From a virus: a DNA stretch of 64,000 nucleotides. Every line of letters begins with the position of its first letter. Positions within the stretch are counted from its first letter, which is position 1. The stretch is from the IMG/VR virus record IMGVR_UViG_3300045988_167643; one strand, 5' to 3'. Under the pieces are notes generated by a model that saw nothing but the letters and a program-made list of their open reading frames with translations, was not told the DNA's origin and searched no databases. This document shows, piece by piece, positions 5,764-28,572 of the stretch. Both the position numbers and the translations under genes were made by a program.

Positions 5764-5913
5764 ATGTTAAAACGTGCTTTTAGCACTCCCACAGGTTCCT
5801 CACCAGGATACAGTAGCGTGCAACGTTCCTGGTGTGGTATCCATGGAACTACTAATATCTTAATTGATAACTGTAATACAATTCTCTTGAAAAATCAATA
5901 AAGGAGTATACAA

Positions 5914-6081: not shown

Positions 6082-6101
6082 TTTTAAAAAGGAGAATATA
6101 T

Positions 6102-6536
6102 ATGACAAAAGCAGAATTAATTTTCTATGAAATGACAGATAGAGAAATTTTCAGTAGAGCTAAAACAGTTTATGAGAAGTTAGGAATGAGTGAAAAAGGA
6201 CTTCTCTCAGTTATGCGTCCAACGATGGGTGCTGTAACAATTCTTTCAGTGGATCTCACAAATAAGATCAGAGATGCTGTAAGTATGCAGTATGACGATT
6301 TTCTTGCAGATGACTATATTGAAAGAGCAAAGAAAATTCAGAATGAAATGAAAGAAAAGAGAGAAGAAAGTATTAAGGGGCAGAAAGTAAGTAATTCATA
6401 TATTGATAAATTCAATAAAGAGGTACAGGACTCAGACAATGATTTTGAGAGAGAATGTACTAAAGAAATTATCAGACTTATAAAATTACTTCCTGATAAA
6501 TCTGCCAAGAAACTCATTAAAAAATATTTTGAATAA
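6102..6536 (+). CDS. hypothetical protein (144 aa)
   Basis: ORF track, with AAGGAG RBS. Confidence 0.65.
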   Translation: MTKAELIFYEMTDREIFSRAKTVYEKLGMSEKGLLSVMRPTMGAVTILSVDLTNKIRDAVSMQYDDFLADDYIERAKKIQNEMKEKREESIKGQKVSNSYIDKFNKEVQDSDNDFERECTKEIIRLIKLLPDKSAKKLIKKYFE

Positions 6537-6555
6537 AAAATAAGGAGAAAAAATT

Positions 6556-8604
6556 ATGAAGATGTATGATCCGGAAATCTGGAAAAATGAGAACAATGGA
6601 TATGAGGAACTTATTGAAAACATTAAGAAAACTTTTGCATCAAAATTGAAAGACAATGTAAAAACACCATTATTCAGAACAAGCGTATCTGACTTATTTG
6701 ACACATTTCTTTACTATCTTCCAGATGCTTGCAAACAGGAATATACATGTAGAGCTTGTAAACACTTTGTAGATCGATTTGGTGGACTTGTATTTATTAA
6801 AGAAGATGGAACAACTGAGTCTGCTATTTGGAATGTTGAAAATATTCCTGGAATGTTTATTGAGCCAATTACACAGATGAAAGAGATTGTTGAATCTGCA
6901 CAGGTCCAGGATATATTCGTATCAGACTATGTGGATCTTGGAACATATGATACTAATGGATTCCATCATTTTTCTGTAAAACTTCCAAGAGTAATGATCA
7001 ATACATCAAGAGTAAAAAATGCATCACAGGTATCTGCTGAGAAAGCTGAAGATTATGGAATGCTGAAAAGAGCACTTGAGAAGTATTCCATGCCACAGAT
7101 TGATCAGGCACTTAATTTATTAGAATCCGGAAGTTTATATAGAGGTAGCAGCTATGTAGCAATGTGCAAATGGTTTAAGGAAACAAAAGAGAAGATTGCT
7201 TCTATCAATGATCAGCCACAGCACACTAATATGATTTGGAAATATGCTGCTACAGCTCCAAATGGATTTACTCACATTTCCGGAAGTATGTTAGGTACAT
7301 TACTTGACTATATTGTAGATGGTGATGACTTTGATACTATCAAGCGTAAATTTGAGACTAATATGAGTGCCGAGAATTATAGACGTTCACAGTCTGCACC
7401 TACTCAGAGAGCTGTTGAAAGTGCTGAAAAACTTATTGAAAAACTTGGTCTTGCAGATTCACTTAGAAGAAGATATGCAAAACTGGATGAGCTTCCTGAG
7501 AATGAATTTATTTGGAAGAGTAAAACTGAAAAGAAAGATGAAGTAAAGACTGGAGTATTTGCAGGAGTTCAGACTAAAGCTGTAGATAGTAATGAAACAA
7601 AATCTGTAATTCCACAGGTAACTATGACATGGGATAAATTCGGAAAAACAATTCTTCCTACCGCAGATAAATTGGAAGTAAAGGTTGATGGAACAACTCA
7701 TCTTATGGGAATGGTAACAGCTGCGGTTCCGGAATCTGAAAATATTATGAACTGGGATAATCCATTTTCTTGGTATTATCAGAGTGGTATTGATTCTGTG
7801 ATTCGTGAGCGACTTGAAGCAAAAGGTGCAAAATATGAAGGTTGTGAGATCAGATGCTCTCTAATCTGGAATACACGAACAGATTTAGATTTGCATTGTA
7901 TTTGTCCTGATGGAGTAGAAATTTATTTTGGACATAAGAATCACGGATATGGTTCATTGGATGTTGATGCAAATGTTCATGGTGAGACAGTAACACCTGT
8001 TGAGAACATTCGTTGGCCACTTGGTAAAGTTCCAGAAGGACGTTATAAATTCTTTGTTAATAACTATACAAATAGAGCAACCCAGAATCCATATAAATTA
8101 GAGCTTGAAGTAAATGGAAAAATTTATACTTATGATGGAAATCTTATAAGTGATAGTTGTAGAAAAAATACAGACGTAGTATTTGAATTTGATTATTGTC
8201 ATGGCGAAGATCCTAAGTTTACTGCAAATTCTAAAAAGACAGAAACTAAAGAAACTTGGGGAATTAGCAACGGATTCTCAGAAGTTGTTGCAATTATTCC
8301 GTCTCCAAACATGTGGGGAGAAAATCCATATAAACGATCTGGTGAACATACTTTCTTCTTATTGAAAGACTGCAAAGATATGACAGGCGGAGTTGGACGT
8401 GGTTTCTTTACTGAAATGCTTAAGGGTGATTTACAGGAAATTAGAAAAACACTTGAGGCATATACAGCTTCAACACCTATTGAAGGTGAAGATGAAGCAA
8501 GTGCTTGTGGTGTTGGCTACAGTAAAGATAAAGAGTGGAATCTGATTGTAAAAGTGACTACCGGCAACATTGTAAAAATGATTAAGATTGATAGGTTTGA
8601 CTGA
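6556..8604 (+). CDS. large hypothetical protein with internal TerD/YfaP(DUF2135)-like beta-sandwich signature
   Basis: 682-aa ORF with AAGGAG RBS. The internal segment CSLIWNTRTDLDLHCICPDGVEIYFGHKNHGYGSLDVDANVHGETVTPVENIRWP..GRYKFFVNNY carries the signature. The N-terminal CRACKHF motif is unassigned. Confidence 0.75.
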   Translation: MKMYDPEIWKNENNGYEELIENIKKTFASKLKDNVKTPLFRTSVSDLFDTFLYYLPDACKQEYTCRACKHFVDRFGGLVFIKEDGTTESAIWNVENIPGMFIEPITQMKEIVESAQVQDIFVSDYVDLGTYDTNGFHHFSVKLPRVMINTSRVKNASQVSAEKAEDYGMLKRALEKYSMPQIDQALNLLESGSLYRGSSYVAMCKWFKETKEKIASINDQPQHTNMIWKYAATAPNGFTHISGSMLGTLLDYIVDGDDFDTIKRKFETNMSAENYRRSQSAPTQRAVESAEKLIEKLGLADSLRRRYAKLDELPENEFIWKSKTEKKDEVKTGVFAGVQTKAVDSNETKSVIPQVTMTWDKFGKTILPTADKLEVKVDGTTHLMGMVTAAVPESENIMNWDNPFSWYYQSGIDSVIRERLEAKGAKYEGCEIRCSLIWNTRTDLDLHCICPDGVEIYFGHKNHGYGSLDVDANVHGETVTPVENIRWPLGKVPEGRYKFFVNNYTNRATQNPYKLELEVNGKIYTYDGNLISDSCRKNTDVVFEFDYCHGEDPKFTANSKKTETKETWGISNGFSEVVAIIPSPNMWGENPYKRSGEHTFFLLKDCKDMTGGVGRGFFTEMLKGDLQEIRKTLEAYTASTPIEGEDEASACGVGYSKDKEWNLIVKVTTGNIVKMIKIDRFD

Positions 8605-8605
8605 T

Positions 8606-9640
8606 ATGAACATTGAAGAGATTAAGAAAAAAGTAGCTGGTCCGGACTATGATTTTCTGAGAAACAATGAACACCTTGGCTCCAACATTATTTTGTTGGG
8701 GTTAGGTGGAAGCTATAGCTATGGTACTCAAAAATCTGACGGAACGAGCGATTTGGATTTGAGGGGAATTTGCTTAAATAAAAAGCATGAAATTCTTACT
8801 AACCAGAATTTTGAACAATTTATCAACGAAGATACAGATACAACTATTTATGCGTTTAATAAGATTATTTATCTTATGGCAGCTTGCAACCCTAATGTTA
8901 TTGAGCTAGGAGGGCTTAAACCAGAACATTATTTATATATTCATCCAATTGGACAAGAAATATTAGATAATGCACATATGTTTTTATCTAAAAGGGCAAT
9001 TCATTCATTTGGTGGTTATGCCTCGCAACAATTAAGAAGAACAAATAACAAGGCAGCTCGTTTAGTAGGACAAACAGAGCGTGAACAACATATTTTAAAT
9101 TCGATAAACAATGCATTTTATACTTTTCCTACAAAATATTTTACATTTCCGGATGATTCTATAAAACTATATGTAGATAAGGCGGTTCAAGAAGACTATG
9201 ATACCGAAGTATTTATGGATATTAATCTAAAGCATTATCCGTTACGTGACTATAAATCTATGTGGTCCGAAATGAATAATATTGTTAAAGATTACTCGAA
9301 AATTGGTAAGCGTAATAAACATGCGGTAGAGCATGGAAAATTAGGTAAGCACATGATGCATTTGGTTCGCCTGTACTATATGTGTTTTGATATTTTGGAA
9401 AATGAGAAGATTATTACATACAGAGAAAAAGAACATTATTTGTTGATGGACATTAGAAATGGTAAATATTTAGATGAAAACAAACAGCCAATTCCAGAAT
9501 TCTTTGAGATGGTAAATGAGTTGGAAAAGAGACTGGAATATGATGCAGAAAACACATCACTTCCAGACAGTCCGGATTATAAAAGAATCAATGAGTTTGT
9601 TATGTCTGTAAACGAAAGAATTGTGAAAGGAGAAATTTAA
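8606..9640 (+). CDS. pol-beta superfamily nucleotidyltransferase (YcgL/RlaP-like by recollection)
   Basis: GLGGSYSYGTQKSDGTSDLDLRGI matches the G[SG]x9-13 D.D NTase signature. ATG 8606 lies 1 nt after the upstream stop (the track start 8588 is TTG). Confidence 0.7.
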   Translation: MNIEEIKKKVAGPDYDFLRNNEHLGSNIILLGLGGSYSYGTQKSDGTSDLDLRGICLNKKHEILTNQNFEQFINEDTDTTIYAFNKIIYLMAACNPNVIELGGLKPEHYLYIHPIGQEILDNAHMFLSKRAIHSFGGYASQQLRRTNNKAARLVGQTEREQHILNSINNAFYTFPTKYFTFPDDSIKLYVDKAVQEDYDTEVFMDINLKHYPLRDYKSMWSEMNNIVKDYSKIGKRNKHAVEHGKLGKHMMHLVRLYYMCFDILENEKIITYREKEHYLLMDIRNGKYLDENKQPIPEFFEMVNELEKRLEYDAENTSLPDSPDYKRINEFVMSVNERIVKGEI

Positions 9641-9642
9641 TT

Positions 9643-12270
9643 TTGTACGGTTTAAAAAGTAGTGAAGTAGAAAAGCAGAGAGAAAAGTATGGTAGTAATA
9701 AACTGCCAGAGAAAAAGCTGAAAACATGGTTTCAGTTCTTTATGGAAACATTTAAAGATCACATAAATCAGATTCTATTAGCAATGATGATTGTATTTAC
9801 AGTTATTGCAGTGTTTGGACAGGGATCTTATTCAGAACCGATTGGTGTAGCAGTAGTATTATTGGCAATCGCATTGTTAGGAATGAACACCGGACTGAAA
9901 AGCCAGAAAAGTACAAAAGAGTTGAAGGATAGGACATCAGTTCATTATTGTAATGTAATCAGAAATGGAAAAATCGAGCATATCAATACAAATGATTTGG
10001 TTGTCGGTGATCTGGTTATCATTCAGTCCGGAGAAGCCATTCATGCAGATGGTTATCTGGTAGAAGGAAATATAAAAGTTGACAACTCTGTATTGAATGG
10101 AGAGTCAGAGCCTTGCAAAAAAACAGCATGGGATAAAGAAGATTCACCTATCGCATTTGGTGGTCAGAGAAAAGCGGATTCAAGTGATTATACAAATTCT
10201 TACGCACTGTTTTCCGGAACAACGGTAACAGACGGTGAAGGAAAGATGATCGTAACTAATGTTGGTGTTGACACAGTAAACGGTCAGACAATTTCGACCA
10301 TTGATGAAATCGAAGAAACAAAGACTTCCCTGGAAATCCAGTTGGAGGATCTTGCTGGACAGATTAGTAAATTCGGGTATATCGGAGCTTTAATCATTGT
10401 TGTAGCATTGATTATCACAAACATTATCCAGTACGGCGGTATCGCTGAATACTTTGGAATGGGTTGGATTGGTATTTTGAAAAATATTCTTACCATTGCA
10501 GTAACTGCGCTTACCATTATTGTCGCAGCAGTACCAGAAGGACTTCCGTTGATTATTAACCTTATTACCGCGCAGAATGCAAAAGTAATGATTAAACACA
10601 ATGTCCTAGCTAAACACACTAACAAGATTCCAGAAGCAGGTAATATTCAGTTACTTTGTACCGACAAAACAGGAACGCTTACAGTTGGGAAACTTGTTCC
10701 AGTAGAGAATGTAATGGGTGATGGAAAATCTATTATAGAAGATGAAAATACATATAATTTGTTTAAATATAATGTCATCTTAAATAGTAGTGCAATGTTT
10801 GATGAAAATAATAAAATTGTTGGTGGAAATGCCACAGAGAGAGCATTACTTTCTTTAGTTAATGCAGATGAGTATAAGAAAATCACTGGATCTACAACTA
10901 TTGTAAACAAGAAGAGTTTTAATAGTGCAAATAAATTTAGTGCTGTTGAAACAGAATATAACGGTGAGACATTTACATATTATAAAGGTGCTCCAGAGAG
11001 ATTGATTGATGCAGCAACAAAATGCGTGACTCTAAACGGTCTTGAGCCTATTGATAAAGATAAACTTAAAATGATTGTAAGATCATATACCGTTAAAGCA
11101 ATGAGAGTAATTGCTACTGGTTATAGTTCTTCTAAGCTTCCAGAAGATGGATTCCCAAATGATCTTATTATTACATCTTTGGTTGCAATTCGTGATGATG
11201 TTCGTCCGGAAGTACCAGAAGCAGTGGCAAAAATGCACGATGCAGGAGTCCAAGTAATGATGGTAACTGGCGACGTTATCGACACAGCGAAAGCTATCGC
11301 AAAAGATGCTGGATTGATCACAAGTGAATCTGATATTGCAATGTCTGCTATTGACTTTGATGCATTGTCAGATGAAGAGGCAAAAGAAAAACTTCCTTAT
11401 ATTAAAGTTATTGCTAGAGCAACACCAAACACTAAACTTAGAATTGTACGTTTAGCTCAAGAACTTGGTCTTTGTGTAGGTATGACTGGCGATGGAACAA
11501 ATGATGCACCAGCACTGAAAGCTGCAGATGTTGGATTCTCAATGGGATCTGGAACAGACGTATGTAAAGAAGCTGGAGATATTATTATCACAGATGACAA
11601 CTTTGTATCTATCACAGATGCGGTTCTTCTTGGAAGAACATTCATGCACAACGTTATGAAGTTCCTGAAATTCCAATTGCCTATCAATGTAGGTCTGGTA
11701 ATTCTAAGTATTTTATATCCGATCATCATGGCTGTAGAAGCAGTCGCAGCAGTACAGATTCTTGTAATTAACATTGTTATGGATTCTCTTAATTCACTTT
11801 CCTTTGGTGGAGAACCGGCGAAAGATGAATATATGAAAGAAAAGCCTATTCCGAAAGGATCAAAACTTCTTTCAAAAGAAACTATCGGTCAGATTGCAGT
11901 ATCAGTTGTGGCATTTATTGGAATCTTTGGTATTACTTTATTACCACCGGTACAGAAAATTTTCGGAAACAATGAGTCTGTTTATGCCACAGTCAGATTT
12001 GCACTACTCATTATGATGGCAACATTCAACGGATTTAATATTAGAACAGACGGATTCAATCTGTTTAAGGGTATCGGCAAAAATAAACTTTTCATCGAAA
12101 TTGCAGTTGTAATTTTCGCCTTAACATTTGCTCTGGCACAGTTCGGGGGAGATATTATGGGATGTACAGCAATGACGCTTATGCAGTGGGGTGTAACAGT
12201 TGTTTTGGCATTTATGATTATCCCAATTGATTTAGTACGAAAAGCTGTTATAAAAATTAAAAGAAAGTAG
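9643..12270 (+). CDS. P-type ATPase, P2 (Ca2+-transporter-like)
   Basis: Carries the phosphorylation motif CTDKTGTLT, TM4 AVPEGLP, MVTGD, and the hinge TGDGTNDAPALKAADVG. About 8-10 hydrophobic helices. TTG start. Confidence 0.9.
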   Translation: MYGLKSSEVEKQREKYGSNKLPEKKLKTWFQFFMETFKDHINQILLAMMIVFTVIAVFGQGSYSEPIGVAVVLLAIALLGMNTGLKSQKSTKELKDRTSVHYCNVIRNGKIEHINTNDLVVGDLVIIQSGEAIHADGYLVEGNIKVDNSVLNGESEPCKKTAWDKEDSPIAFGGQRKADSSDYTNSYALFSGTTVTDGEGKMIVTNVGVDTVNGQTISTIDEIEETKTSLEIQLEDLAGQISKFGYIGALIIVVALIITNIIQYGGIAEYFGMGWIGILKNILTIAVTALTIIVAAVPEGLPLIINLITAQNAKVMIKHNVLAKHTNKIPEAGNIQLLCTDKTGTLTVGKLVPVENVMGDGKSIIEDENTYNLFKYNVILNSSAMFDENNKIVGGNATERALLSLVNADEYKKITGSTTIVNKKSFNSANKFSAVETEYNGETFTYYKGAPERLIDAATKCVTLNGLEPIDKDKLKMIVRSYTVKAMRVIATGYSSSKLPEDGFPNDLIITSLVAIRDDVRPEVPEAVAKMHDAGVQVMMVTGDVIDTAKAIAKDAGLITSESDIAMSAIDFDALSDEEAKEKLPYIKVIARATPNTKLRIVRLAQELGLCVGMTGDGTNDAPALKAADVGFSMGSGTDVCKEAGDIIITDDNFVSITDAVLLGRTFMHNVMKFLKFQLPINVGLVILSILYPIIMAVEAVAAVQILVINIVMDSLNSLSFGGEPAKDEYMKEKPIPKGSKLLSKETIGQIAVSVVAFIGIFGITLLPPVQKIFGNNESVYATVRFALLIMMATFNGFNIRTDGFNLFKGIGKNKLFIEIAVVIFALTFALAQFGGDIMGCTAMTLMQWGVTVVLAFMIIPIDLVRKAVIKIKRK

Positions 12271-12278
12271 GAAAGTAT

Positions 12279-12467
12279 ATGGTTAAAAGAGATAAAGAGT
12301 ACAAGAAAATTGAAAATATAACCTTGTGTTGTTACGCCGTAGGGCTGGGGCTTGCATGTGCAACAAAGTTTCTGCCATTTATCCTTTTAACTGTTATGGC
12401 ATATCCTATTTCATTTCGAGTAGTAGATAATAAATGGAGTGGTAAAAATGCCACTCCTAGAAAATAA
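12279..12467 (+). CDS. small membrane protein (62 aa)
   Basis: ORF track. Two hydrophobic helices, wedged between the ATPase and the first TerD gene. Confidence 0.55.
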
Positions 12468-12481
12468 AAGGAGAAAATATT

Positions 12482-13048
12482 ATGGTAAGTTTAGTAAAAG
12501 GACAGAAAGTAGATCTTACAAAAGGAAACGCAGGATTAAAGCAGATTATCGTTGGTTTGGGATGGGATGCAAATAAGTACGATGGTGATAATTTTGATCT
12601 GGATTCGGCAGCATTTCTTCTTGGAACAAATGGAAAAGTAAGAAATTCAGATGATTTCGTATATTATAACAATCTCAAACATTCAAGTTGTGCAGTTCAG
12701 CATATGGGTGACAATCTTACTGGTTTAGGCAATGGAGACGATGAGCAGATTATCGTTGATTTGACAAAGATTCCGGCTGATGTTGAAAAAATTGCATTTA
12801 CAGTAACTATCTATATGGCAGAAGAGAGACTGCAGAACTTCGGTATGGTTTCCAATTCATACATTAGAATGGTAAACAAAGACAATGATGAAGAGATGAT
12901 CCGCTACGACCTGGGAGAAGATTATTCCACAGAAACAGCAATGGTTCTTGGCGAACTGTATCGCCACAACGGAGAATGGAAATTCAATGCTATTGGACAG
13001 GGATATTCCGGTGGTTTACAGGCACTTTGCAGTAGTTTTGGAGTTTAA
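12482..13048 (+). CDS. terD: TerD-family protein (paralog 1)
   Basis: Canonical TerD signatures: [46 protein letters not shown]. Confidence 0.9.
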
Positions 13049-13066
13049 TGTAGGAGGAAATAAATA

Positions 13067-13720
13067 ATGGCAGTAAGTTTAACAAAAGGGCAAAAAGTAA
13101 ATCTTTCAAAAGCAGTAGAGAAACTGGCAAATGTAACTGTAGGACTTGGATGGGATATGGCACAGAGCGGAAGCAGAATTGATTGTGATTCTTCTGTATT
13201 TGTACTTCGTGAATCCACAAAACGAATTTCAAAGAAAGTGAAATCTGGACTGTTCGGACTTTTTTCAAAGGTAGAAACAGATGAAGTTACAGAATGTAGT
13301 CTGACAAGATCTGATGATATTATTTATTATGGAAATCTTACACATGATAGCGGTTGCGTTAAACATAGGGGTGACAATCTTGTTGGTGGAAAGGGCAAAA
13401 GAAATGATGACGAACAGATTGCGATTGATTTGAAGAAAATGCCGCCGGATATTAAGAAGTTGGTAGTGGTTGTGAATATCTACAACTGTAGAGTTAAGGG
13501 GCAGCATTTTGGAATGATCAAAAACTGTTATGCAAGAATTGTAGATGATGCAACCAAAGAAGAAATTTGTCGCTACAATCTTACAGATGGTTATGACAAA
13601 TGTACAGCACTTATCGTTGGAGAGCTGTATCGTGACGAAAATGATGAATGGCAGTTTAAAGCTATCGGTGAGGGAACACAGGATGGTAGTATTTCTGATA
13701 TGGCAAAAAGATACAAATAA
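13067..13720 (+). CDS. terD: TerD-family protein (paralog 2, divergent, with insertion)
   Basis: Carries GLGWD, DCDSSVFVL, GDNLVGGKGKRNDDEQIAIDL and EWQFKAIGEG. About 25 extra residues (KRISKKVKSGLFGLFSKVETDEVTECS) sit after the first beta hairpin. Confidence 0.85.
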   Translation: MAVSLTKGQKVNLSKAVEKLANVTVGLGWDMAQSGSRIDCDSSVFVLRESTKRISKKVKSGLFGLFSKVETDEVTECSLTRSDDIIYYGNLTHDSGCVKHRGDNLVGGKGKRNDDEQIAIDLKKMPPDIKKLVVVVNIYNCRVKGQHFGMIKNCYARIVDDATKEEICRYNLTDGYDKCTALIVGELYRDENDEWQFKAIGEGTQDGSISDMAKRYK

Positions 13721-13750
13721 CGAAGGAAATAATGAAGGAGATAAAGTGAT

Positions 13751-14329
13751 ATGTCAGTAAGTCTTAAAAAGGGAGATAAAGTTGCACTGTCAAAGGACAG
13801 TATTGTAAATAGAATTTCCGTTTGCCTTGGTTGGGACACAGCAAAGTATGATGATGATGGAGATTTTGATTTGGATGCTTCTGCATTTGTTGTTACCAAA
13901 GCTGGTATAACAAGATCTGATAATGATTTTGTATTTTACAATAACCTGAAACATCCGAGTGGTGGAGTAATCCATAGCGGAGATAATTTAACAGGCTTTG
14001 GAGAGGGTGATGATGAAGTCATCAAAGTGGATCTTGAAAAACTTCCAAAATATGCGGACAGAGTAGTATTTTGTGTGACCATTTTTGAGGCAGAACGCCG
14101 TATGCAGAATTTTGGCATGGTGGAAAACTCATATATCCGTATTGTAGATGATGTAACTGGAAACGAAATTATGAGATACGATCTCAAAGAGAAGTTCGGA
14201 AATTCTACAGCTATCATTGCTGGTGAAATTTATCGTGATGAATCAAAATGGAAGTTTCATGCAGTAGGAGAAGGACGGGATGGCGGTCTTTTAGAACTGT
14301 GCAAAGAATTTGAAGTAGAGGTAGAATAA
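13751..14329 (+). CDS. terD: TerD-family protein (paralog 3)
   Basis: Carries LGWD, DFDLDASAFVV, GDNLTGFGEGDDEVIKVDL and KWKFHAVGEG. Confidence 0.9.
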   Translation: MSVSLKKGDKVALSKDSIVNRISVCLGWDTAKYDDDGDFDLDASAFVVTKAGITRSDNDFVFYNNLKHPSGGVIHSGDNLTGFGEGDDEVIKVDLEKLPKYADRVVFCVTIFEAERRMQNFGMVENSYIRIVDDVTGNEIMRYDLKEKFGNSTAIIAGEIYRDESKWKFHAVGEGRDGGLLELCKEFEVEVE

Positions 14330-14330
14330 A

Positions 14331-15098
14331 ATGACAGTAGGAACAAGTAATGTAGTTATCTTTTGTCTCTCAATCTTGGGAGTAATTATTATTGCGGCAC
14401 TGATTTTAAACAAAACATTTTTCAAGCAACTCGTAATTAAGTTCAGAGGAAGAACGGAAGAAATCGCAAGACAGGACGCTTCTACGCCGGATGGTGCAAG
14501 AGATTATTTCAATAATGCGATCAGAGAAAAAGAGACTCTGTACAGCAAAGCAGAACAGTCTTATACAGAGATTGCCGGTAAACTGGATGAAGCAGAAAAA
14601 GAACAGTACGACCTCAAAAAAGAACTTATGAAGATTGATAAGTCTATCAATAATTGTCTGGATTCTGGTGATGATGATACTGCAAGACAGTATGCTATGA
14701 AGAAGATTACTATTCAGGGTAAGATTGAGACGTTGAAAGATACTATTGAAGAATACAAAAAAGCAAAAGAGCAGCAGAATGAAATCCGTAGTGCTATTAA
14801 GCAGGAACTCGATGAACTCAAAGAGGAAAAAGAAAGAACGGTTTATCAAATGGAAGCAGATCAGCAGATTATTTCTCTGCATGAGGGCATGAATGCAAGT
14901 GCAAGCACAAACGAAAGTGACCGTATGCTTGAAAGAGTGCGCGAGGGTGCGAAGAAAACAAGAGAACGTGCAGCAGGAGCGCAGATTGCTTATGACACAA
15001 GTACAGAGGCAATGGATCGCAGAATGGAAACACAGGAAAGAAATCGTGCGGCTGATGAAGTACTTGCTGAGATGAAACGAAGGAGAAACAACAAATAA
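14331..15098 (+). CDS. membrane-anchored PspA/IM30-like coiled-coil protein
   Basis: N-terminal TM helix (VVIFCLSILGVIIIAALIL) followed by about 215 aa of heptad-rich sequence. Segments align by eye to PspA (DDDTARQYAMKKITIQ.., MLERVREGAKKTRERAAGAQ). Confidence 0.55.
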   Translation: MTVGTSNVVIFCLSILGVIIIAALILNKTFFKQLVIKFRGRTEEIARQDASTPDGARDYFNNAIREKETLYSKAEQSYTEIAGKLDEAEKEQYDLKKELMKIDKSINNCLDSGDDDTARQYAMKKITIQGKIETLKDTIEEYKKAKEQQNEIRSAIKQELDELKEEKERTVYQMEADQQIISLHEGMNASASTNESDRMLERVREGAKKTRERAAGAQIAYDTSTEAMDRRMETQERNRAADEVLAEMKRRRNNK

Positions 15099-15193
15099 TG
15101 ATTGTTATAAATATCGGGGCATTTATCATTTGTATTGCAACAGCTTTTATTGTAGGTTTCTGCACTGGAAAAGTAAAGAAGAAAAAGAATTAA
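15098..15193 (+). CDS. micro membrane ORF (31 aa)
   Basis: Read by hand. ATG overlaps the upstream stop (TAATG). Sequence is MIVINIGAFIICIATAFIVGFCTGKVKKKKN. Confidence 0.35.
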   Translation: MIVINIGAFIICIATAFIVGFCTGKVKKKKN

Positions 15194-15410
15194 GAAGTTG
15201 AATAGTGGAATGTTGGCTTAGAAGCAGCCATCATCTAAGGAGTAGGGCTTTAAGTCTAAAGGTATGAAAAACTTCAATCGAAGATAAACGAGTAAGAGAA
15301 TAGGATGTAAAGAGTTATGATACGTCACCCCTTAACAGGTAAGGACAAGTCCCCTTTTGGCGTAATAGCACACCACTATTAATATTTTAGATGCATTTAA
15401 AAAATTAGGT

Positions 15411-15546
15411 CGTGCAGTGGCAGAATGGACATATGCGTATAATAATGCTTTATTTACAAAATTAGGCATATTATAATGGCGAATTTATGTCAGTAAACAA
15501 AATTGATAAAATTTGCTTATATAGGGTTCAAATCCCTATCTGCACA
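15411..15546 (+). ncRNA. 136-nt tRNA-shaped RNA with oversized anticodon-like and variable-like arms
   Basis: Acceptor-like pairing GTGCAG(15412-17)/CTGCAC(15540-45). Type-II-like D arm TG-GCA-GAATGGACATA-TGC. Canonical T arm ATAGGG-TTCAAAT-CCCTAT. Two long internal hairpins. Confidence 0.45.
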
Positions 15547-15573
15547 TTAAATCTTAAAGAAAGGAGAATAAAA

Positions 15574-16953
15574 ATGATAGAGGGTATTGTATTACCAGAG
15601 TCCGTAAAATCTATATTTTACGTACTTAATCGTAATGGTTATGAAGCCTATCTTGTAGGTGGAGCTGTACGAAATTCTATTATAGGATTACCTGTACACG
15701 ACTGGGATATCTGCACAAATGCCTTGCCGGAAGACGTATGTAAATTATTCCGTAGTAAAGGATTTCGTGTAGTAGAAACAGGCTTGCAGCATGGCACTGT
15801 AACTGTCATGGTAAATTATCGTGGATACGAGATAACTACTTATAGAACTGATGGAAAATATACTGATAGTCGCCATCCAGATTCTGTAAAATTTATCGGA
15901 AGTATTCACGAAGATTTAGCAAGACGTGATTTTACAATGAATGCAATTGCTTATAATGACGATGATGGATTTATTGATCCGTTCAATGGACTAAAAGATA
16001 TTGAGAATAAAGTTATACGATGTGTAGGCACACCTGTTGATAGATTCACAGAAGATCCGTTACGTATTATGAGAGCTGTAAGGTTTGCCGCCCAATTAGG
16101 ATTCCATATTGAAAACTATACCAATATTGCAATGGTACAAACAAATGATGGTTTGTCAAAGATTTCTGCAGAAAGAATACAATCAGAGCTGTGTAAGATT
16201 CTTATTTCAGATCATCCTGAGTATGTACTTGATTATTATATTGATATTTCACCGGCAATTCCTGAGTTAAGTAAGATGATGGGATGCTCTCAAAATAACA
16301 TGTATCACATTTATGATGTATGGAATCACACCAGATTTTCATTAACAGCTTGTAGAATACATGAATTAGAGACCAGACTTGCTATCTTATTGCACGATAT
16401 TGGTAAACCAGAATCAAAAACTGTAGATCGAGGAATTGAGCACTTCTATGGACATGCTGTTAAAAGTGCAGAGATTACTGAATCACTACTTCGTAGACTA
16501 AAATTTTCCAACGAGATTAGGGAATCTGTAGTAGAACTTGTAGCAAGTCATGATATGGAAATTGTACCAAAACCAAATAAAATTAAAAAATATCTGAATA
16601 AACTTGGTGAAGCACAACTTAGAAGACTGTTAGATGTAAGATTCTGCGATATTATGGCACACAATCCGTATTATGCAAAAGATCGTCTATGGGAAATTTT
16701 TCGTGCAGAAGAAATATTAAATGAAGTTCTGGCAGAAGCGAAGTGTTTTTCTATAAAAGATTTGGCTATAAATGGGAAGGATATTATGGAACTTGGCGTA
16801 CCGGAAGGACCAGATGTCGGAAAATGGCTTAAATATGCATTAGAGGAAGTAATTAATGACAGGTTGGATAACGGCAAAGAAGATATTCTAAACGATATTG
16901 AGGCTAAATTATTTGCAGAAAGAGAAGAAGGTAATGACGAGGAAATGTCCTAA
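15574..16953 (+). CDS. cca: CCA-adding enzyme (tRNA nucleotidyltransferase) with HD domain
   Basis: Carries GGAVRNSIIGLPVHDWDI (the class II NTase GGxVR..D.D motif), RDFTMNA, and the HD motif LLHDIGKP. AAGGAG RBS precedes ATG 15574. The track's upstream extension covers the tRNA-like T arm. Confidence 0.9.
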   Translation: MIEGIVLPESVKSIFYVLNRNGYEAYLVGGAVRNSIIGLPVHDWDICTNALPEDVCKLFRSKGFRVVETGLQHGTVTVMVNYRGYEITTYRTDGKYTDSRHPDSVKFIGSIHEDLARRDFTMNAIAYNDDDGFIDPFNGLKDIENKVIRCVGTPVDRFTEDPLRIMRAVRFAAQLGFHIENYTNIAMVQTNDGLSKISAERIQSELCKILISDHPEYVLDYYIDISPAIPELSKMMGCSQNNMYHIYDVWNHTRFSLTACRIHELETRLAILLHDIGKPESKTVDRGIEHFYGHAVKSAEITESLLRRLKFSNEIRESVVELVASHDMEIVPKPNKIKKYLNKLGEAQLRRLLDVRFCDIMAHNPYYAKDRLWEIFRAEEILNEVLAEAKCFSIKDLAINGKDIMELGVPEGPDVGKWLKYALEEVINDRLDNGKEDILNDIEAKLFAEREEGNDEEMS

Positions 16954-19637: not shown

Positions 19638-19811
19638 ATGATTTCGTTCTACATTTTAGTAATTATTGGAGCAATTTTATTATGGATTTTACTTGCAAAT
19701 ATCGGTACATTCAAGTTTATCGGATGGATTTCATCACATTTAAGTAATGGTGTTAAAGATGCAATGGAAGATAAAGAAAATGAAAACAAAGAGGATAAAA
19801 AAGATGAGTAA
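19638..19811 (+). CDS. small membrane protein (57 aa), possible partner of the SPFH protein
   Basis: Read by hand, with GAGGGG RBS. Has a hydrophobic N-terminus (ISFYILVIIGAILLWILLANIG) and an acidic tail. The stop overlaps ATG 19804 of the next gene. Confidence 0.45.
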   Translation: MISFYILVIIGAILLWILLANIGTFKFIGWISSHLSNGVKDAMEDKENENKEDKKDE

Positions 19812-20766
19812 AAAAAGAACTGGTGGAATTATTGCTGGAGCTGTTATTGTTGGTGGACTTGCATTGGGTGGTTTAAACACAGTTAAGATTGACCCTGGTT
19901 ATATTGGGATTATATACGATGCTACTCATGGTGGAGTTAATGGCGAAACTATGAAAGAGGGATGGAACTTTAAAACGCCTACACAGAAAGTAACGGAATA
20001 TTCAATCGCCCTCGAGCAGTCTTATCTTACTAAAGATGATAAGGGGGATTCTGATAAAGACGAAAGCTTTAATATTCCAACATCTGATGGAAAATCAATC
20101 AATGTAGATGTGGAATTCTCATATCGTTTTGATGAGGATAGAATTACAGAAATTTTCAAAACATTTAAAGGTAAGAGTGGTGAAAGTATTAAAAATACAT
20201 TCATTAAACCTAAGATTATTGCGTGGTCTCAGGAAGTATCTGCAAAATATCCTGTAACTGATGTATTTGGTGATAAAAGGCAGGAGCTTAATCAGGCACT
20301 TGATGATTATCTCAAAGCAAAATTCGACAAATACGGAATTATTATTGATACTGTAAACTTTACAAGAATTGAAACAGATGAAGAGACTACAGCTGCAATT
20401 CAGAAAAAGGTAACAGCACAGCAGGATCAGGAGCTTGCAACAATTGAAGCTAAGACTGCGAAGATTAATGCTGAAAAAGAGAAAGAAGTTGCTCTTATCA
20501 CAGCAGAGCAGAATAAAGAAACCGCACAGATTAATGCTGAACAGGCAAAAATCAAAGCAGAAGGTCAGGCAGAAGCTACTAAGATTGCTGCAGAAGCCGA
20601 AGCAGAAGCAAACAAGAAGATTGCAGAGAGCTTAACTCCAGAACTTATTGAGAAAATTAAGATGGAGCGTTGGAATGGCGAACTTCCAATGGTTAGTGGA
20701 TCTTCCGGAACAATTATTAATATGACAGACGATGCCAATGAAACAACTGTCGAAGAAGAGAAATAA
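19804..20766 (+). CDS. SPFH/band-7 (prohibitin/flotillin-like) membrane protein
   Basis: N-terminal TM (GGIIAGAVIVGGLALGG), then GYIGIIYD...EGWNFKTP typical of SPFH, then an Ala/Glu-rich coiled coil. The internal ATG 19804 is preferred over the track start. Confidence 0.75.
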   Translation: MSKKRTGGIIAGAVIVGGLALGGLNTVKIDPGYIGIIYDATHGGVNGETMKEGWNFKTPTQKVTEYSIALEQSYLTKDDKGDSDKDESFNIPTSDGKSINVDVEFSYRFDEDRITEIFKTFKGKSGESIKNTFIKPKIIAWSQEVSAKYPVTDVFGDKRQELNQALDDYLKAKFDKYGIIIDTVNFTRIETDEETTAAIQKKVTAQQDQELATIEAKTAKINAEKEKEVALITAEQNKETAQINAEQAKIKAEGQAEATKIAAEAEAEANKKIAESLTPELIEKIKMERWNGELPMVSGSSGTIINMTDDANETTVEEEK

Positions 20767-25363: not shown

Positions 25364-25435
25364 AGCATCTTAGTGTAATGGTTATCACGGATGACCTTGG
25401 ATCATCAGATGTTGGTTCGATTCCAACAGGTGCCG
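25364..25435 (+). tRNA. near-canonical tRNA, anticodon UUG (Gln) if read conventionally, but with C33 and an A1.C72 mismatch
   Basis: Hand fold: AGCATCT-TA-GTGTAATGGTTATCAC-G-GATGA-CCTTGGA-TCATC-AGAT-GTTGG-TTCGATT-CCAAC-AGGTGCC-G. Confidence 0.5.
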
Positions 25436-25506
25436 TTAACTCAGAAATGAGTATTTCAAAGTTAAAAATTTAAAGAATAAAATTCAATTTAAAGGAGAAG
25501 AAAATT

Positions 25507-26157
25507 ATGACAAAAGAAACTATGACAGTACATAAAGCGTTAGCAGAAATTAAAATCCTTAAAGACAGAATCCAGAGTGAGATTTACAATTCAATTTTTG
25601 TATCTTGCAAAAAAAATTCTCAGTCAAAAATTTCTGGAATGGATGTTGATGAATATGAGAAGATTATTACAGGATGTTACGACAAAGATGTAGATCTTAT
25701 GAGTAGACTTGAAGCTCTGCAGAGAGCAGTAATGCTTTCAAATGCAGTAACAAAAGTTAAGATTAAAATTGGAGAAAATGAAGAAGAACGTACTGTAGCA
25801 GAAGCAATCAACATGAAAAATAACAGTATGATGTTCAAGAGACAGATGCTTGACAGAATGCAGCAACAGCTTTCTCAGGCACAGGCAAAAACAAACAAAG
25901 AGAATGAGATTCTTGAAAGTAAGTCAGAAAATTATGTAACTGGTCTTTTTGGACAGAAAGAGGGTAAAACTTCTACCGATGAAGTTACAAAAGCCAAACA
26001 GCAGTACATTGATCTTAACACATGGGAGTTGATTGATCCGATAAATGTGCAAAATAAAATCCGTGTTTTATCTGACGAAATTTCATCATTTGAAGCAGAA
26101 GTAGACTCTGTTTTAAGCACAAGTAACGCATTAACAACAGTTACAATTGAGTATTAA
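25507..26157 (+). CDS. coiled-coil hypothetical protein, the only clear CDS inside the RNA island
   Basis: ORF track, with AAAGGAG RBS. Confidence 0.7.
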   Translation: MTKETMTVHKALAEIKILKDRIQSEIYNSIFVSCKKNSQSKISGMDVDEYEKIITGCYDKDVDLMSRLEALQRAVMLSNAVTKVKIKIGENEEERTVAEAINMKNNSMMFKRQMLDRMQQQLSQAQAKTNKENEILESKSENYVTGLFGQKEGKTSTDEVTKAKQQYIDLNTWELIDPINVQNKIRVLSDEISSFEAEVDSVLSTSNALTTVTIEY

Positions 26158-26435
26158 AGAATGGTTAGTGAATTATTTGCTGAAAATTGTATAAACGATT
26201 TTTGACCAATATGATAGCTAAATAGCCATTGCTATACGAACAGTTGTATAAAAGATTTCCTTCATTGCTTATCGAAAATCACTGAACTATAATCCTTTAG
26301 TCTTTCAGTCAGCATAGAGTAAAGTAAAAAATTAAACAAGCTGGCCTTAAAAATTAAATGGTTTAGACTCATACTCTAAATAATTTTACTAAGTTAGATA
26401 AAATTGTGCAGAAGTGCATTATTACTAATGCATGT

Positions 26436-26554
26436 AAAGTTTAAAGATAGAAAGTTCAAACCTTAAAGTTCAAAATTCAAAGCTTATTTTTGATATAAAG
26501 TTCACGTAGTAAAGTTGATAAGTTCCAAAGTTTGATAAAAACCTTGAGAAAGTT
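26436..26554. repeat. iteron-like array, 7 direct copies of AAAGTT(C/T/G)
   Basis: AAAGTT occurs at 26436, 26451, 26465, 26497, 26511, 26527 and 26549. A TGCATTA/TAATGCA palindrome lies just upstream. Confidence 0.7.
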
Positions 26555-26683
26555 TTGGTAGCATGATTATATCGGCTCTGTGGTTTGTACAAGGCTGATA
26601 AGTGGTGAAGTTCATCTTATAAATAAATCAATGCGGTTATTAAAACCTTGTTTCTTAGTTCTAACAAAGCCGCAGTTGGAACG

Positions 26684-26752
26684 TCCTGGATAGTTAAATG
26701 GTTATAACACATGAAACCCATGTATTTGCCGGTTCGAATCCGCATTCAGGAT
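26684..26752 (+). ncRNA. aberrant tRNA-like element (5-nt anticodon-like loop, weak T stem)
   Basis: Acceptor TCCTGGA/TTCAGGA, D arm GTTA-AATGGTTA-TAAC, ACATG-AAACC-CATGT, and T loop TTCGAAT with only 3 clean stem pairs. Confidence 0.4.
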
Positions 26753-26813
26753 TTGGGTTAGTTACCCAAAAAAGATTTCTTATTTCTTATACCTCCTAAA
26801 GTGTTGATGAGGT

Positions 26814-26880
26814 GGGGCATGACTTCGATGGCGAAGAGACTTTAAATAGTCTGTACTGGGTTCGACTCCCAGATGTCCTA
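26814..26880 (+). ncRNA. aberrant tRNA-like element (67 nt, 6-nt loop TTAAAT)
   Basis: Acceptor GGGGCAT/ATGTCCT with G.U pairs, D arm CTTC-GATGGC-GAAG, AGACT-TTAAAT-AGTCT, and a perfect T arm CTGGG-TTCGACT-CCCAG. Confidence 0.4.
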
Positions 26881-27227
26881 TTAGAGATTTCAGATATGTG
26901 GTGCCACAAAAACGCTTCTCAATATCCGAGTTGCCGTACCGTTTGACTACACAATATCGTGTATGATCCACCTACAGAGCGCAGTAGTTCTGGAATCTCG
27001 AAGCTATACGAAAGATTTGTTTACTGCTAGAGCAATCGAATAGTACGGTTAAACTTTTACATATTTAGTAACAGCAGAGTAGCAGCTGTGCGTGAAAAAG
27101 TGTATATATCTTCGGAAGTTCAATCAAACTTACAGTATGTGGTTATGGTTCTTGTGGCGATGAGCCTTATAAGAAGATCAGAGTACTCTAAAAAGGTTTG
27201 GTTTACAAAGTTGTTTCAATTTTAGCA

Positions 27228-27284
27228 GACACATTCCAGATGGGGAGCCTTAATTGGTTCTGAGTTCAACCCTCAGATGTGTCT
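27228..27284 (+). ncRNA. truncated tRNA-like element (57 nt: acceptor + T arm + one short region)
   Basis: Perfect 7-bp acceptor GACACAT/ATGTGTC and T arm CTGAG-TTCAACC-CTCAG. Only 25 nt sit where the D and anticodon arms should be. Confidence 0.4.
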
Positions 27285-27815
27285 CTTAGGAAGAGTTTCT
27301 TCCTATTATAAATTGAATAGCATAGTTGCGAATATAGGCGGTGCAAAACAATCATCGACATAATAAATCCCAAAGTCATCGTTAGGGAACTCCGTGGAGT
27401 CTGCTCCTATGGCTGATGGACTCTTATGCTATCCATTTTGAATAAGGCGTAGTTAACCTGTGGATGTGGTGAAACGATATATCCCTCCAAAGTTCTGACA
27501 CTTATCAGATATTCAAATGGCGTTATAGCTCTACACATACGTTAAATGTGGGAATTGTAATTAAGGAGCATTATATATTTTATGTATATGGATATAATAA
27601 AATTCTTTTGATGAACTTCTAATGTAGATTACACTATGTTGTTACCATATAGACTTAATAGAAGGAATTTGAAAGAGAAATAATTTCATATTGGAAGTAG
27701 CTATTGTAGATACATATCATCTGAGGTGTGGATGTGAAGATGGCTACGCAGATCTCTCGAAGAAAGTCTAGGCGTAAAGTAAGATGAGTAGATACTGAAG
27801 ATATGAAATTGTTTT

Positions 27816-27888
27816 TGGGTTGTGATGAAGCGGTCAACATCCGGAGCTTTGACCTCCGTATTCGTAGGTTCAAATCCTACCAGCCCAG
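27816..27888 (+). tRNA. tRNA-Gln (anticodon UUG)
   Basis: 73-nt cloverleaf: TGGGTTG-TG-ATGAAGCGGTCAACAT-C-CGGAG-CTTTGAC-CTCCG-TATTC-GTAGG-TTCAAAT-CCTAC-CAGCCCA-G. The U1-A72 pair and D loop resemble bacterial tRNA-Gln. Confidence 0.85.
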
Positions 27889-28055
27889 CTAGTGTTATAA
27901 GTATGCAACGGTAATTGAATATAAATAATAGTAATATGTCACCTTCAAGATAATCCTAGGACTTGAAGTAAAATAAATTACACCTGTGATTAAAGTATTA
28001 TAAAATATATTTATTTATTGGAGGTCGTGCATGGCTTCGCTTATAACACAACCAA

Positions 28056-28129
28056 GGACCATTAGCCAAACGGTTAAGGCAGTCGCCTCATAAGCGAAAG
28101 ATTTCTGTGTTCGAATCACAGATGGTCCA
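28056..28129 (+). tRNA. tRNA with CAU anticodon (Met, or Ile2 if lysidine-modified)
   Basis: GGACCAT-TA-GCCAAACGGTTAAGGC-A-GTCGC-CTCATAA-GCGAA-AGATTT-CTGTG-TTCGAAT-CACAG-ATGGTCC-A. Confidence 0.8.
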
Positions 28130-28488
28130 TATCCACTACGTAACGTATTCCTCATAAATACGTTAGCGATAAAAACTTGACTACTTGATATGAGCAAGCA
28201 GAAGAGATATGCTAAGTTCTTGGTTATAGGCATATCAAAAACGCACAAAAATACAAAATACAATTTAATAACATGCAAAAACCGTTGTCAAAAATATCTC
28301 ATATAAATCCTGTGTGGATTTTACGATAGTCCGAAACTGAGAGGGATTGGTTCAGCGTAAGAGATATACGAGACCTTTAAGTATCAGAAAGTAGGCGGTA
28401 GGTTTTCACAATGGTCACCTACAAAATAGTATGTAAGCCTATACTGATGATGTGCGCAGTTGTCAGTATAGCAGTACTTAAAAAATAA

Positions 28489-28572
28489 ACGGATGTGGCG
28501 AAATCAGGAAAACGCACCAGACTTAGGAACTGGTGGCTAACAGCCTTGTGGGTTCGAGTCCCATCATCCGTA
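28489..28572 (+). tRNA. tRNA-Leu (anticodon UAG), type II with long variable arm
   Basis: ACGGATG-TG-GCG-AAATCAGGAAAA-CGC-A-CCAGA-CTTAGGA-ACTGG-TGGCTAACAGCCTT-GTGGG-TTCGAGT-CCCAT-CATCCGT-A. Confidence 0.85.

Follow-up and report, generated by a model that had tools for sequence, protein, structure and literature searches.

The stretch of DNA analysed here (the window) comprises 64,000 nucleotides (nt) of the IMG/VR virus record IMGVR_UViG_3300045988_167643, and our subject is a cassette of seven genes on its + strand, at positions 9643-15193. In order, these genes encode a predicted Ca2+-exporting P-type ATPase, a 62-amino-acid (aa) hydrophobic micro-protein, three TerD paralogues, a membrane-anchored PspA-like protein and a 31-aa micro-protein. 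It is a real and strongly conserved phage cassette, composed of known families. The genomic context is that of a phage: the window is low in GC (28-37%) and gene-dense, with nearly all of its genes on the + strand, and it carries genes for a 1,105-aa phage-type DNA polymerase (phrog_405), RecJ-like and exonuclease V-like nucleases, a DnaB-like helicase, a DNA ligase and a ribonucleotide reductase, together with several tRNAs. A PHROG scan assigned every larger open reading frame (ORF) of the region to an existing family, and megablast of the region against GenBank phages returned zero nucleotide-level matches. Two genes directly upstream, ORF1 and ORF2, had been joined to these seven in a first-pass annotation, which read nine ORFs from 6556 to 15193 as a single translationally coupled operon; all nine were found on the + strand at those coordinates.

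The first gene of the cassette (ORF3; 9643-12270, +) opens with a TTG start 2 nt past the stop codon of the upstream nucleotidyltransferase gene and encodes an 875-aa protein, predicted to be a PMCA-type (P2B-like) Ca2+-exporting P-type ATPase. The call of a Ca2+-type P-type ATPase was borne out by its Pfam domains (E1-E2_ATPase, Cation_ATPase_N/C and Hydrolase) and by the NCBIfam equivalog TIGR01517 (calcium-translocating P-type ATPase, PMCA-type), whose cut-off of 507.05 was passed marginally with 514.9 bits; the SERCA-, PMR1-, Mg- and H-type models scored far under their cut-offs. The closest PDB entries were plant ACA8 (5e-106) and Listeria LMCA1 (6e-102), followed by PMCA1/2, SPCA and SERCA, all of which are Ca2+ pumps.

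The catalytic motifs CTDKTGTLT, YKGAPE, MVTGD and GDGTNDAPAL are present in the window protein, and DKTGT, PEGL, the N..D pair of M6, TGD and GDGxND are conserved across 105 relatives. The predicted Ca2+ ligands of site II are intact as well: the M4 Glu of AVPEGLPL and the M6 Asn/Asp of QILVINIVMDSL align with those of ACA8 and LMCA1 and are conserved. The acids of site I are missing, as in PMCA (M5 reads INVGLV, with Leu at the position of SERCA Glu771, and M8 has Ala at SERCA Glu908, as read off the PDB-match alignment). Because M5 and M8 are without the SERCA site-I acids, a single-site, PMCA/LMCA1-like pump is suggested. We infer that the pump is specific for Ca2+ in vivo.

The three TerD paralogues are encoded at 12482-13048 (TerD1, 188 aa), 13067-13720 (TerD2, 217 aa) and 13751-14329 (TerD3, 192 aa), all on the + strand. 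Each is full-length and far over the PF02342 gathering score of 25.3: TerD1 matched with E = 7e-85 (283.6 bits), TerD2 with E = 1e-61 in two stretches (208.2 bits) and TerD3 with E = 1e-71 (240.7 bits), so the three paralogues seen earlier are confirmed. TerD1 also gave a full-length match to Klebsiella TerD (2KXT, E = 1.3e-71). Two acidic motifs (DLDASAF; GDNxTGxGDGDDE) are what we take to be the Ca2+ sites of TerD, after Pan et al. 2011. Both are there in TerD1 (DLDSAAF and a second acidic motif of the GDNxTGxGxGDDE type) and in TerD3 (DLDASAF and GDNLTGFGEGDDE). At the level of motifs, which is the level at which the acidic residues were checked, the putative Ca2+-ligand aspartates of the GDNxTGxGxGDDE and DLDxSAF motifs are thus kept, in TerD2 partly.

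Positional orthology of the three paralogues is maintained across the clade, and the middle TerD of every three-TerD clade compared has a G(L/M)(F/L)G-type motif, placed in one of two loops. In TerD2 this is a loop insertion with GLFGLFSK. The amphipathic SGLFGLFSK loop resembles the N-terminus MGF(F/L)xK(L/A/V)F (e.g. MGFFGKLFGK) of a vWA-TerF-like protein encoded in relatives (L003 and L016), and the shared motif is reminiscent of the membrane-targeting helix of MinD, an analogy which hints that it might serve TerD2 as a membrane-targeting element. The gene for the vWA-TerF-like protein (PF10138, 8e-61) is inserted into the cassette in many relatives, and its product also matches the Copine model (2e-9); copines are C2 + vWA proteins that bind membranes in a Ca2+-dependent manner. 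Pfam matches to TerB, TerC, TerA/Z and TelA were sought among the ORFs of at least 45 aa between 636 and 20766 (about 6 kb on each side), and none was found. The cassette had been described as lacking the context of a classical ter operon: this is right for TerB, TerC and TelA, but with the vWA-TerF-like gene of many relatives the module is not entirely devoid of such context.

The next gene (ORF8; 14331-15098, +) encodes a putative membrane-anchored protein of 255 aa of the PspA/Vipp1 family (ESCRT-III superfamily), in which an N-terminal transmembrane (TM) helix is followed by a long helical hairpin. When the profile of the ORF8 family was compared with the PDB, Vipp1/PspA came top (E = 3e-5). 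The AlphaFold2 model is all helical, with a mean predicted local distance difference test score (pLDDT) of 79 and values > 90 over residues 60-170, and in a Foldseek search of the PDB ranks 1-14 were all Vipp1/PspA (probability 1.00, TM-score 0.45-0.65), followed by CHMP2A-CHMP3, Asgard ESCRT-IIIB and CdvB. The N-terminus is strongly hydrophobic (residues 1-36, Kyte-Doolittle peak 3.29) and forms a helix at residues 3-26 of the model. The profile, the fold and the N-terminal helix agree with the earlier call of a TM-anchored PspA-like protein; ORF8 appears to be a TM-anchored variant in which the amphipathic helix alpha0 of PspA is replaced by a TM segment. Among its relatives, a 26-29%-identical one passes PF04012 with 42.4 bits, and many homologues of 53-60% identity have a precomputed match to this model. 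Membership of ORF8 in the PspA/IM30 family is plausible at the family level. The partner genes pspB, pspC, pspF, liaI and liaF were not found in its neighbourhood. An assignment of ORF8 to TelA was considered and dropped, there being no Pfam TelA match.

Both micro-proteins are hydrophobic and conserved in relatives, as their earlier description as membrane ORFs would lead one to expect, and TM segments are predicted in three of the seven products besides the pump. The 62-aa ORF (12279-12467, +) lies directly after the pump gene and probably encodes a two-TM hairpin (hydrophobic residues 14-49). Its motif RD+EY+xVENIxLxCYxxGL...PFIFLTxxAYPIS is common to relatives whose ATPase is at least 76% identical; tblastn also detected the ORF in the group of about 50% ATPase identity, and it is missing from some more distant clades. 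Two independent IMG/VR contigs (L014/L015, 12626-13561, 311 aa) encode it and the vWA-TerF-like protein as one in-frame fusion, which in the Rosetta-stone sense hints that the vWA protein may act together with the small ORF at the membrane. The 31-aa ORF (15098-15193, +), predicted to encode a single-TM micro-protein (hydrophobic residues 1-27), starts in overlap with the stop codon of the PspA-like gene (TAATG). It is the less clade-restricted of the two: almost every variant, also at 45-50% ATPase identity, has the conserved MIV(I/L)N(I/L)G(A/V)F...G(F/Y)xxG+K/R tail encoded after the PspA-like gene. A third small protein, of about 95-105 aa with an N-terminal TM segment, is encoded directly upstream of the ATPase in L012, L016, L080 and L084 (the 76-86% identity group) and is not present in the window; it recalls the small protein co-transcribed upstream of the ATPase of Jug phages (PMC12880540).

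For the comparative analysis, loci were collected with separate ATPase, PspA-like and TerD-profile seeds, and each locus was scored with all proteins of the window. About 170 related loci (about 120 distinct contigs) were obtained, with the gene order ATPase, 62-aa TM ORF (optional), vWA-TerF-like gene (optional), three TerD genes or one, TM-PspA-like gene and 31-aa TM ORF (optional). Three architectures were distinguished: three TerD genes, as in the window; the vWA-TerF-like gene with three TerD genes; and the vWA-TerF-like gene with one longer TerD gene. The order ATPase-TerD-PspA-like was seen in all ATPase-seeded and PspA-seeded loci having enough flank. The co-occurrence of TerD, P-type ATPase and PspA-like genes that the first-pass annotation had asked for in IMG/VR was likewise found, the linked order being kept in 74 of the 80 TerD-seeded contigs, with four of the other six cut by contig ends. 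Gene order persists down to 45% ATPase identity and where the proteins are just 45-60% identical, and the same order was recovered in contigs of metagenome-assembled genomes (MAGs) and isolates (ATPase identity 45-49%) and in Logan and NCBI contigs. Relative to a block made up of ORF1, the nucleotidyltransferase gene and a gene for a CCA-adding enzyme, the cassette shifts as a unit. This pattern supports a unit of seven genes (9643-15193), not nine.

Exchange between closely related phages divides the cassette further. Between the window and locus L003, nucleotide identity is 96.4% over 6099-12439, there is no similarity over 12440-15181, and identity is 92.9% from 15182 onwards. A recombination cassette of the three TerD genes, the PspA-like gene and most of the 31-aa ORF (12440-15181) was thus swapped as one piece; L003 has in its place a vWA-TerF-like gene, one long TerD gene and a PspA-like gene whose product is 33% identical. 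In L046/L102 (IMGVR_UViG_3300045988_170129) the opposite part differs: the pump is just 45% identical in amino acids to that encoded at window 9643-12270, while the TerD-PspA block is 91% and the flanks are 83-91% identical, with values of 82-91% for the surrounding DUF8224 (ORF1), nucleotidyltransferase, TerD and PspA genes. There, the ATPase gene alone has evidently been replaced. The TerD-PspA part and the pump allele have evidently been swapped independently of one another between near-identical phages. Alleles turn over at a fixed position, and selection would therefore keep 'a pump' and 'a TerD-PspA set' there.

The larger unit of the first-pass annotation, an operon of nine genes that takes in the DUF8224 gene and the RlaP nucleotidyltransferase gene, can be judged against these loci. 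ORF1 (6556-8604, +) encodes a 682-aa DUF8224 protein ('YfaP family'; phrog_1735, 5e-169). No Pfam-A match was obtained for ORF1 itself and a sequence search of the PDB was empty; PF26675/DUF8224 was found on its homologues, one of which is called 'YfaP family' by NCBI. A TerD-like sandwich had been proposed for this protein. Its model (pLDDT 82) does contain a predicted beta-sandwich at about residues 430-547, but alignment with the TerD profile in hhalign reached a probability of 1.75% and Foldseek returned no TerD and nothing at E <= 1e-3, so the proposal of TerD homology finds no support. ORF2 (8606-9640, +) encodes an RlaP-family pol-beta nucleotidyltransferase, as had been called (PF10127, 51.9 bits against a gathering score of 23, 1e-13; phrog_388, 1e-50), and most likely starts at the ATG at 8606 rather than at the TTG at 8588.

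The nine genes do share a strand, with gaps of 1-2 nt around ORF2; three sub-clades have ORF1 near the cassette, on its upstream or downstream side, and a nucleotidyltransferase gene is usually found within a few kb. Directly upstream of the cassette, however, ORF1 was seen in no loci but those of the sub-clade to which the window belongs and L090. In about 14 loci (about 50% ATPase identity) it lies downstream, and in most of the others it is absent within about 10 kb. Its family is widespread elsewhere, with 544 GenBank phage records and a stand-alone DUF8224 gene in a Cytobacillus chromosome, and no ATPase, TerD or PspA-like gene was found near the homologue by annotation or tblastn in CBA120 (orf153), Bc431v3 and Sundance. 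In relatives the nucleotidyltransferase gene either lies upstream or follows the cassette at a distance of 1-3 kb, in most cases beside the gene for the CCA-adding enzyme. ORF1, the nucleotidyltransferase and the CCA-adding enzyme stay together as a recurring block, and the cassette sits on either side of this block or inside it.

Spacing does not rescue the nine-gene operon. The intergenic gaps across the nine ORFs are, in order, 1, 2, 8, 14, 18, 30, 1 and -1 nt; tight gaps had been correctly described, but of the several stop/start overlaps there is a single one, the TAATG at 15098. The 78 + strand ORFs found across the window are separated by a median of 12 nt, with <= 30 nt in 73% of the gaps, and the uninterrupted same-strand run already begins upstream, at 5764. 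Tight spacing is thus the norm of this genome, and translational coupling of nine genes is not demonstrated by the sequence. A k-mer search of the 13 larger intergenic gaps yielded no shared promoter motif. With ORF1 and the nucleotidyltransferase in a separate block and ORF1 without detectable TerD homology, we consider the nine-gene operon highly improbable; it is also the least supported of the readings weighed here.

Big gut phages of low GC content, which form a large clade, are where the cassette is typically found. IMG/VR, Logan, ENA and NCBI contain hundreds of related contigs, up to about 220-310 kb in length and binned mostly with Clostridia. When the PspA-like profile was run against 185,579 species genomes, just nine loci were recovered, all with the cassette arrangement: MAG contigs binned mostly to Clostridia and one 499-kb scaffold of the isolate Ruminococcus sp. 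AM36-2AA (L090). That scaffold, the only one of the nine annotated further by Pfam, has phage-like surroundings, among them AAA_24 and an NAD ligase into which an HNH/NUMOD4 gene is inserted. None of the nine loci was a clearly cellular copy. These counts bear on the reading that the genes are a host-derived tellurite, metal or stress island, a passive 'moron' that benefits the lysogen. The isolate scaffold might be taken that way, gut bacteria commonly have genes for TerD and Ca2+ ATPases, and transfer from hosts has been suggested for Jug phages (PMC12880540). We nevertheless hold this reading to be scarcely probable: the few loci in species genomes all have the cassette arrangement, the strong conservation is seen in hundreds of phage contigs, TerB, TerC and TelA are missing, ORF8 gave zero matches against plasmids, and its family, which sequence searches set apart from canonical PspA, is a small one of 228 clusters in 1.84 billion representatives.

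Several features around the cassette were recorded. The 294-nt gap after the 31-aa ORF contains a conserved RNA-like element of about 180-200 nt (15203-15380, +). Its ends resemble the GTPase-associated centre of 23S rRNA (the L11/L10-binding stem; Rfam LSU positions 1098-1144, 19.9 bits, E = 3.8e-4), with a 5' part GGAAUGUUGGCUUAGAAGCAGCCAUCAU and a 3' part GCGUAAUAGCACACCACU separated by a variable insert. The alignment fold comprises a closing helix of 8 bp and a hairpin like H43, and the insert is itself closed by a helix, in which three pairs are compensatory; folded as a single sequence, the element was no better than shuffles. It could be an rRNA mimic or relic. Then follows a gene for a CCA-adding enzyme with an HD domain (15487-16953; PolyA_pol, tRNA_NucTran2_2 and HD). 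A promoter candidate ahead of it (TTTACA...TATAAT before 15487) was rejected for a spacer of just 13 nt. In L177 an RtcB-like gene, identified by reading the sequence, lies near the CCA and RlaP genes. The CCA-adding enzyme and RlaP, often with DUF8224, may form a tRNA/RNA-repair block that flanks the cassette.

A Band_7/SPFH (flotillin-like) gene is located 4.5 kb downstream of the cassette (19747-20766, +; PF01145, 1.8e-24), and the phage may carry further membrane-organising functions. Elsewhere in the window, a RAGATH-27 RNA (26261-26346, 85 bits) lies inside a tRNA cluster (25364-28572), in which a fifth tRNA (26684-26752) was reported by Rfam and not by ARAGORN, and transposase-like (phrog_310) and DNA-transposition-protein-like (phrog_296) genes occupy 56099-59989. 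In relatives, predicted homing-endonuclease-type ORFs interrupt essential genes: the NAD-dependent DNA ligase of L090 (328-2896) is interrupted by the NUMOD4/HNH gene, and NrdD of L093 (581-3838) is in pieces with a NUMOD4 ORF among them.

Our preferred reading, to which we give an even chance of being right, is that the cassette is a Ca2+-linked system for the membrane integrity of the infected cell. Ca2+ would enter through a membrane lesion, such as an injection channel, a holin that leaks prematurely, or the pore of a bacteriocin or of abortive infection. TerD proteins near the membrane would bind the incoming Ca2+; what tethers them there would be the GLFGLF-type amphipathic insertion in TerD2, a role that the vWA-TerF-like protein would take in relatives. 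The PspA-like polymer would stabilise or seal the bilayer, and the pump would keep cytosolic Ca2+ low, expel Ca2+ and reset the system. As for the two micro-proteins, they may regulate or anchor the pump and the PspA-like protein; small peptides that modulate other P-type ATPases are known (regulins, MgtS, KdpF). In this scheme we infer both the coupling of TerD to the PspA-like protein and the benefit to the phage. A self-contained module for Ca2+ and the envelope had been proposed at the outset: pump, TerD and PspA-like genes are indeed adjacent and in the same order clade-wide, ORF1 and the nucleotidyltransferase fall outside it, and its purpose is a matter of interpretation. The rival readings, too, differ from the preferred one mainly in purpose.

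Literature on related genes bears on two of them. Ca2+-translocating P-type ATPases were reported in Jug (jumbo gut) phages and other huge gut phages (PMC12880540, Sci Adv 2026); each Jug genome has three terD genes, one beside a pspA-like gene, in separate and highly transcribed operons, and 85 further phages have ATPases resembling those of Bacteroidaceae or Bacillota. The hypothesis offered for the Jug-phage ATPases is one of Ca2+ homeostasis. Applied to the cassette, it would have the pump and TerD buffers tune host Ca2+ for replication or packaging, with the PspA-like protein offsetting the stress of a 10-TM pump and not gated by Ca2+. The intact pump agrees with it, and so does the link between Streptomyces TerD-domain proteins and Ca2+ homeostasis (PMC8123226). 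Against it, the TerD-PspA pair occurs in L177 without a pump and in Jug phages in a separate operon, the TerD-PspA block is swapped whole, irrespective of the pump, and the PspA-like protein has a conserved TM partner ORF of its own. We regard pure Ca2+ homeostasis as unlikely.

Also summarised in PMC8123226 are the binding of Ca2+ by TerD, the effect that a TerD-domain gene has on Ca2+ homeostasis in Streptomyces, and the implication of the classical ter operon in phage inhibition and colicin resistance. A Ter-like shield of the infected cell or lysogen could accordingly exclude competitors, namely superinfecting phages and pore-forming bacteriocins in the gut, and the independent swapping of the TerD-PspA block and the pump allele looks like turnover of the arms-race type. 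The classical phenotypes, however, need TerB, TerC, TerZ and TerA, which are absent here, and the PADLOC defence models gave a sole, marginal match on the region (LmuB, E = 0.006, on ORF8). Competitor exclusion overlaps in mechanism with the membrane-integrity reading and differs from it mainly in purpose; as the explanation of the cassette we think it quite unlikely. A role in lysis timing is more doubtful still. The PspA-like protein and a micro-protein would hold the proton-motive force against a premature holin, and Ca2+ export would tune cell-wall or endolysin activity, which together would lengthen the productive period. PspA-family proteins do counter proton leakage, big phages have long cycles and the module consists of membrane proteins; yet no holin or endolysin gene was identified beside the cassette in the window or in relatives, and the cassette sits among replication and RNA-repair genes. 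We rate lysis timing as very unlikely.

Several observations weigh against the preferred membrane-integrity reading itself. The A-domain motif of the pump is NGES and not the canonical TGES in the window and all 105 relatives, the catalytic Glu being kept and the Thr replaced; the transported ion could be Mn2+ or another cation; and the best 120 matches of the pump homologue search were all phage-clade sequences (at least 68% identity). The acidic motifs are altered in TerD2 (IDCDSSVF, GDNLVGGKGKRNDDE) and in the long TerD variant. ORF8 itself scores just 22.4 bits against PF04012, under the gathering score of 33.9, and its Foldseek TM-scores of about 0.5 concern a modelled long hairpin of helices, and folds of this type readily give spurious matches. 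Two TerD-seeded contigs, L175 and L177, are truly without the ATPase; because of these, and because Jug phages use separate operons, the pump does not seem obligatory for the TerD-PspA pair. Finally, scans for sigma-70 promoters and intrinsic terminators gave site counts no higher than in shuffled sequence. Because these scans were uninformative, co-transcription of the cassette is only assumed, from a spacing ordinary for this genome.

A stronger form of the membrane-integrity reading would make the cassette a virus-encoded, Ca2+-triggered repair machine of the ESCRT-III type, in which TerD would be a Ca2+ sensor that switches on the membrane-anchored PspA-like polymer where ions leak, and the pump and regulatory TM micro-peptides would reset the signal. 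We think this form improbable; if true, it would be a viral or bacterial counterpart of ALG-2/ESCRT-III repair and would offer a general explanation of Ter resistance to damage by phage, colicin and tellurite. TerD is widespread, in the ter operons of pathogens, in Bacillus and Streptomyces stress regulons and in the 239 GenBank phage records matched here. The cassette repeatedly puts it between a Ca2+ pump and a PspA-like protein, with the parts exchanged as functional equivalents, and so suggests a testable wiring in which Ca2+ acts on TerD, TerD acts on PspA and the pump provides the reset. The phage Ca2+ ATPases reported of late are also given a functional context by it. Many of the abundant gut phages that have Clostridia as hosts may actively manage the membrane integrity and ion balance of their hosts, which bears on competition between phage and host and between phages.

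What is novel is the linked combination of pump, TerD and PspA-like genes and its architecture. The claim that this combination was not known as a unit stands for the linked cassette, which is not described in PMC12880540, and fails for its parts, the pump and terD/pspA-like genes being already reported there. In a 2024 genomic-context survey that dealt with PSP (phage shock protein) systems, none of the words TerD, tellurite, calcium, Ca2+, P-type and virus occurs (PMC11237479). The cassette is best placed as a variant of Ter-type stress systems, for which the proposed function is plausible.

Several known systems resemble it. Eukaryotic ESCRT-III wound repair is triggered by Ca2+ influx via ALG-2 (ALG-2/ALIX), and the proposed logic of the cassette is similar: Ca2+ influx reaches a Ca2+-binding beta-sandwich sensor, an ESCRT-III polymer acts at the lesion and Ca2+ is restored by a pump of the PMCA type. 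The analogy extends to components only, and no homology of the sensors is claimed (TerD as against penta-EF-hand or C2). With PspA, LiaH and Vipp1 (IM30), ORF8 shares the predicted long helical hairpin and a likely membrane-stabilising role, and a Band_7/SPFH gene lies near the cassette; unlike them, it has an N-terminal TM helix in place of alpha0, and no PspB/C/F or LiaI/F partners were seen near it. More distant members of the same TM-PspA-like family (profile E = 1e-26 to 1e-21) belong to a second module, which has the order Band_7, ABC permease, ABC ATPase, protein of about 180 aa, TM-PspA-like protein and OmpA-domain protein. This module was found in Bacillus phage G (gp243-250; L001), L002, L093-L095 and L098, that is, also in metagenomic phages and in one bacterial-looking contig that carries MarR, ArsA and MatE genes. 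It too adjoins a membrane transporter, but one of the ABC type instead of a P-type pump, and it has an OmpA-type cell-wall anchor and no TerD.

Also comparable with the cassette are the classical terZABCDEF operon and yceCDEFGH of Bacillus subtilis, the latter a member of the sigma-W envelope-stress regulon with three TerD paralogues, TerC, YceG and the TelA-like YceH. Like the cassette, these systems combine tandem TerD paralogues with membrane proteins and a long alpha-helical protein around a theme of envelope stress. The cassette differs in having no TerB, TerC, TerA/Z, YceG or TelA, in a helical partner with the PspA/ESCRT-III fold, in its P-type Ca2+ pump and in its location on a phage. 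The Jug phages, too, are gut phages with a Ca2+ P-type ATPase accompanied by a small protein, with three terD genes and with a terD beside a pspA-like gene. Their pump and two terD regions form separate operons, the small protein is encoded upstream of the pump and the predicted hosts are Bacteroides and Phocaeicola, whereas the cassette described here is one contiguous, conserved and exchangeable unit of phages associated with Clostridia, with three TerD genes in tandem, a TM-anchored PspA-like protein, downstream micro-ORFs and an optional vWA-TerF-like gene.

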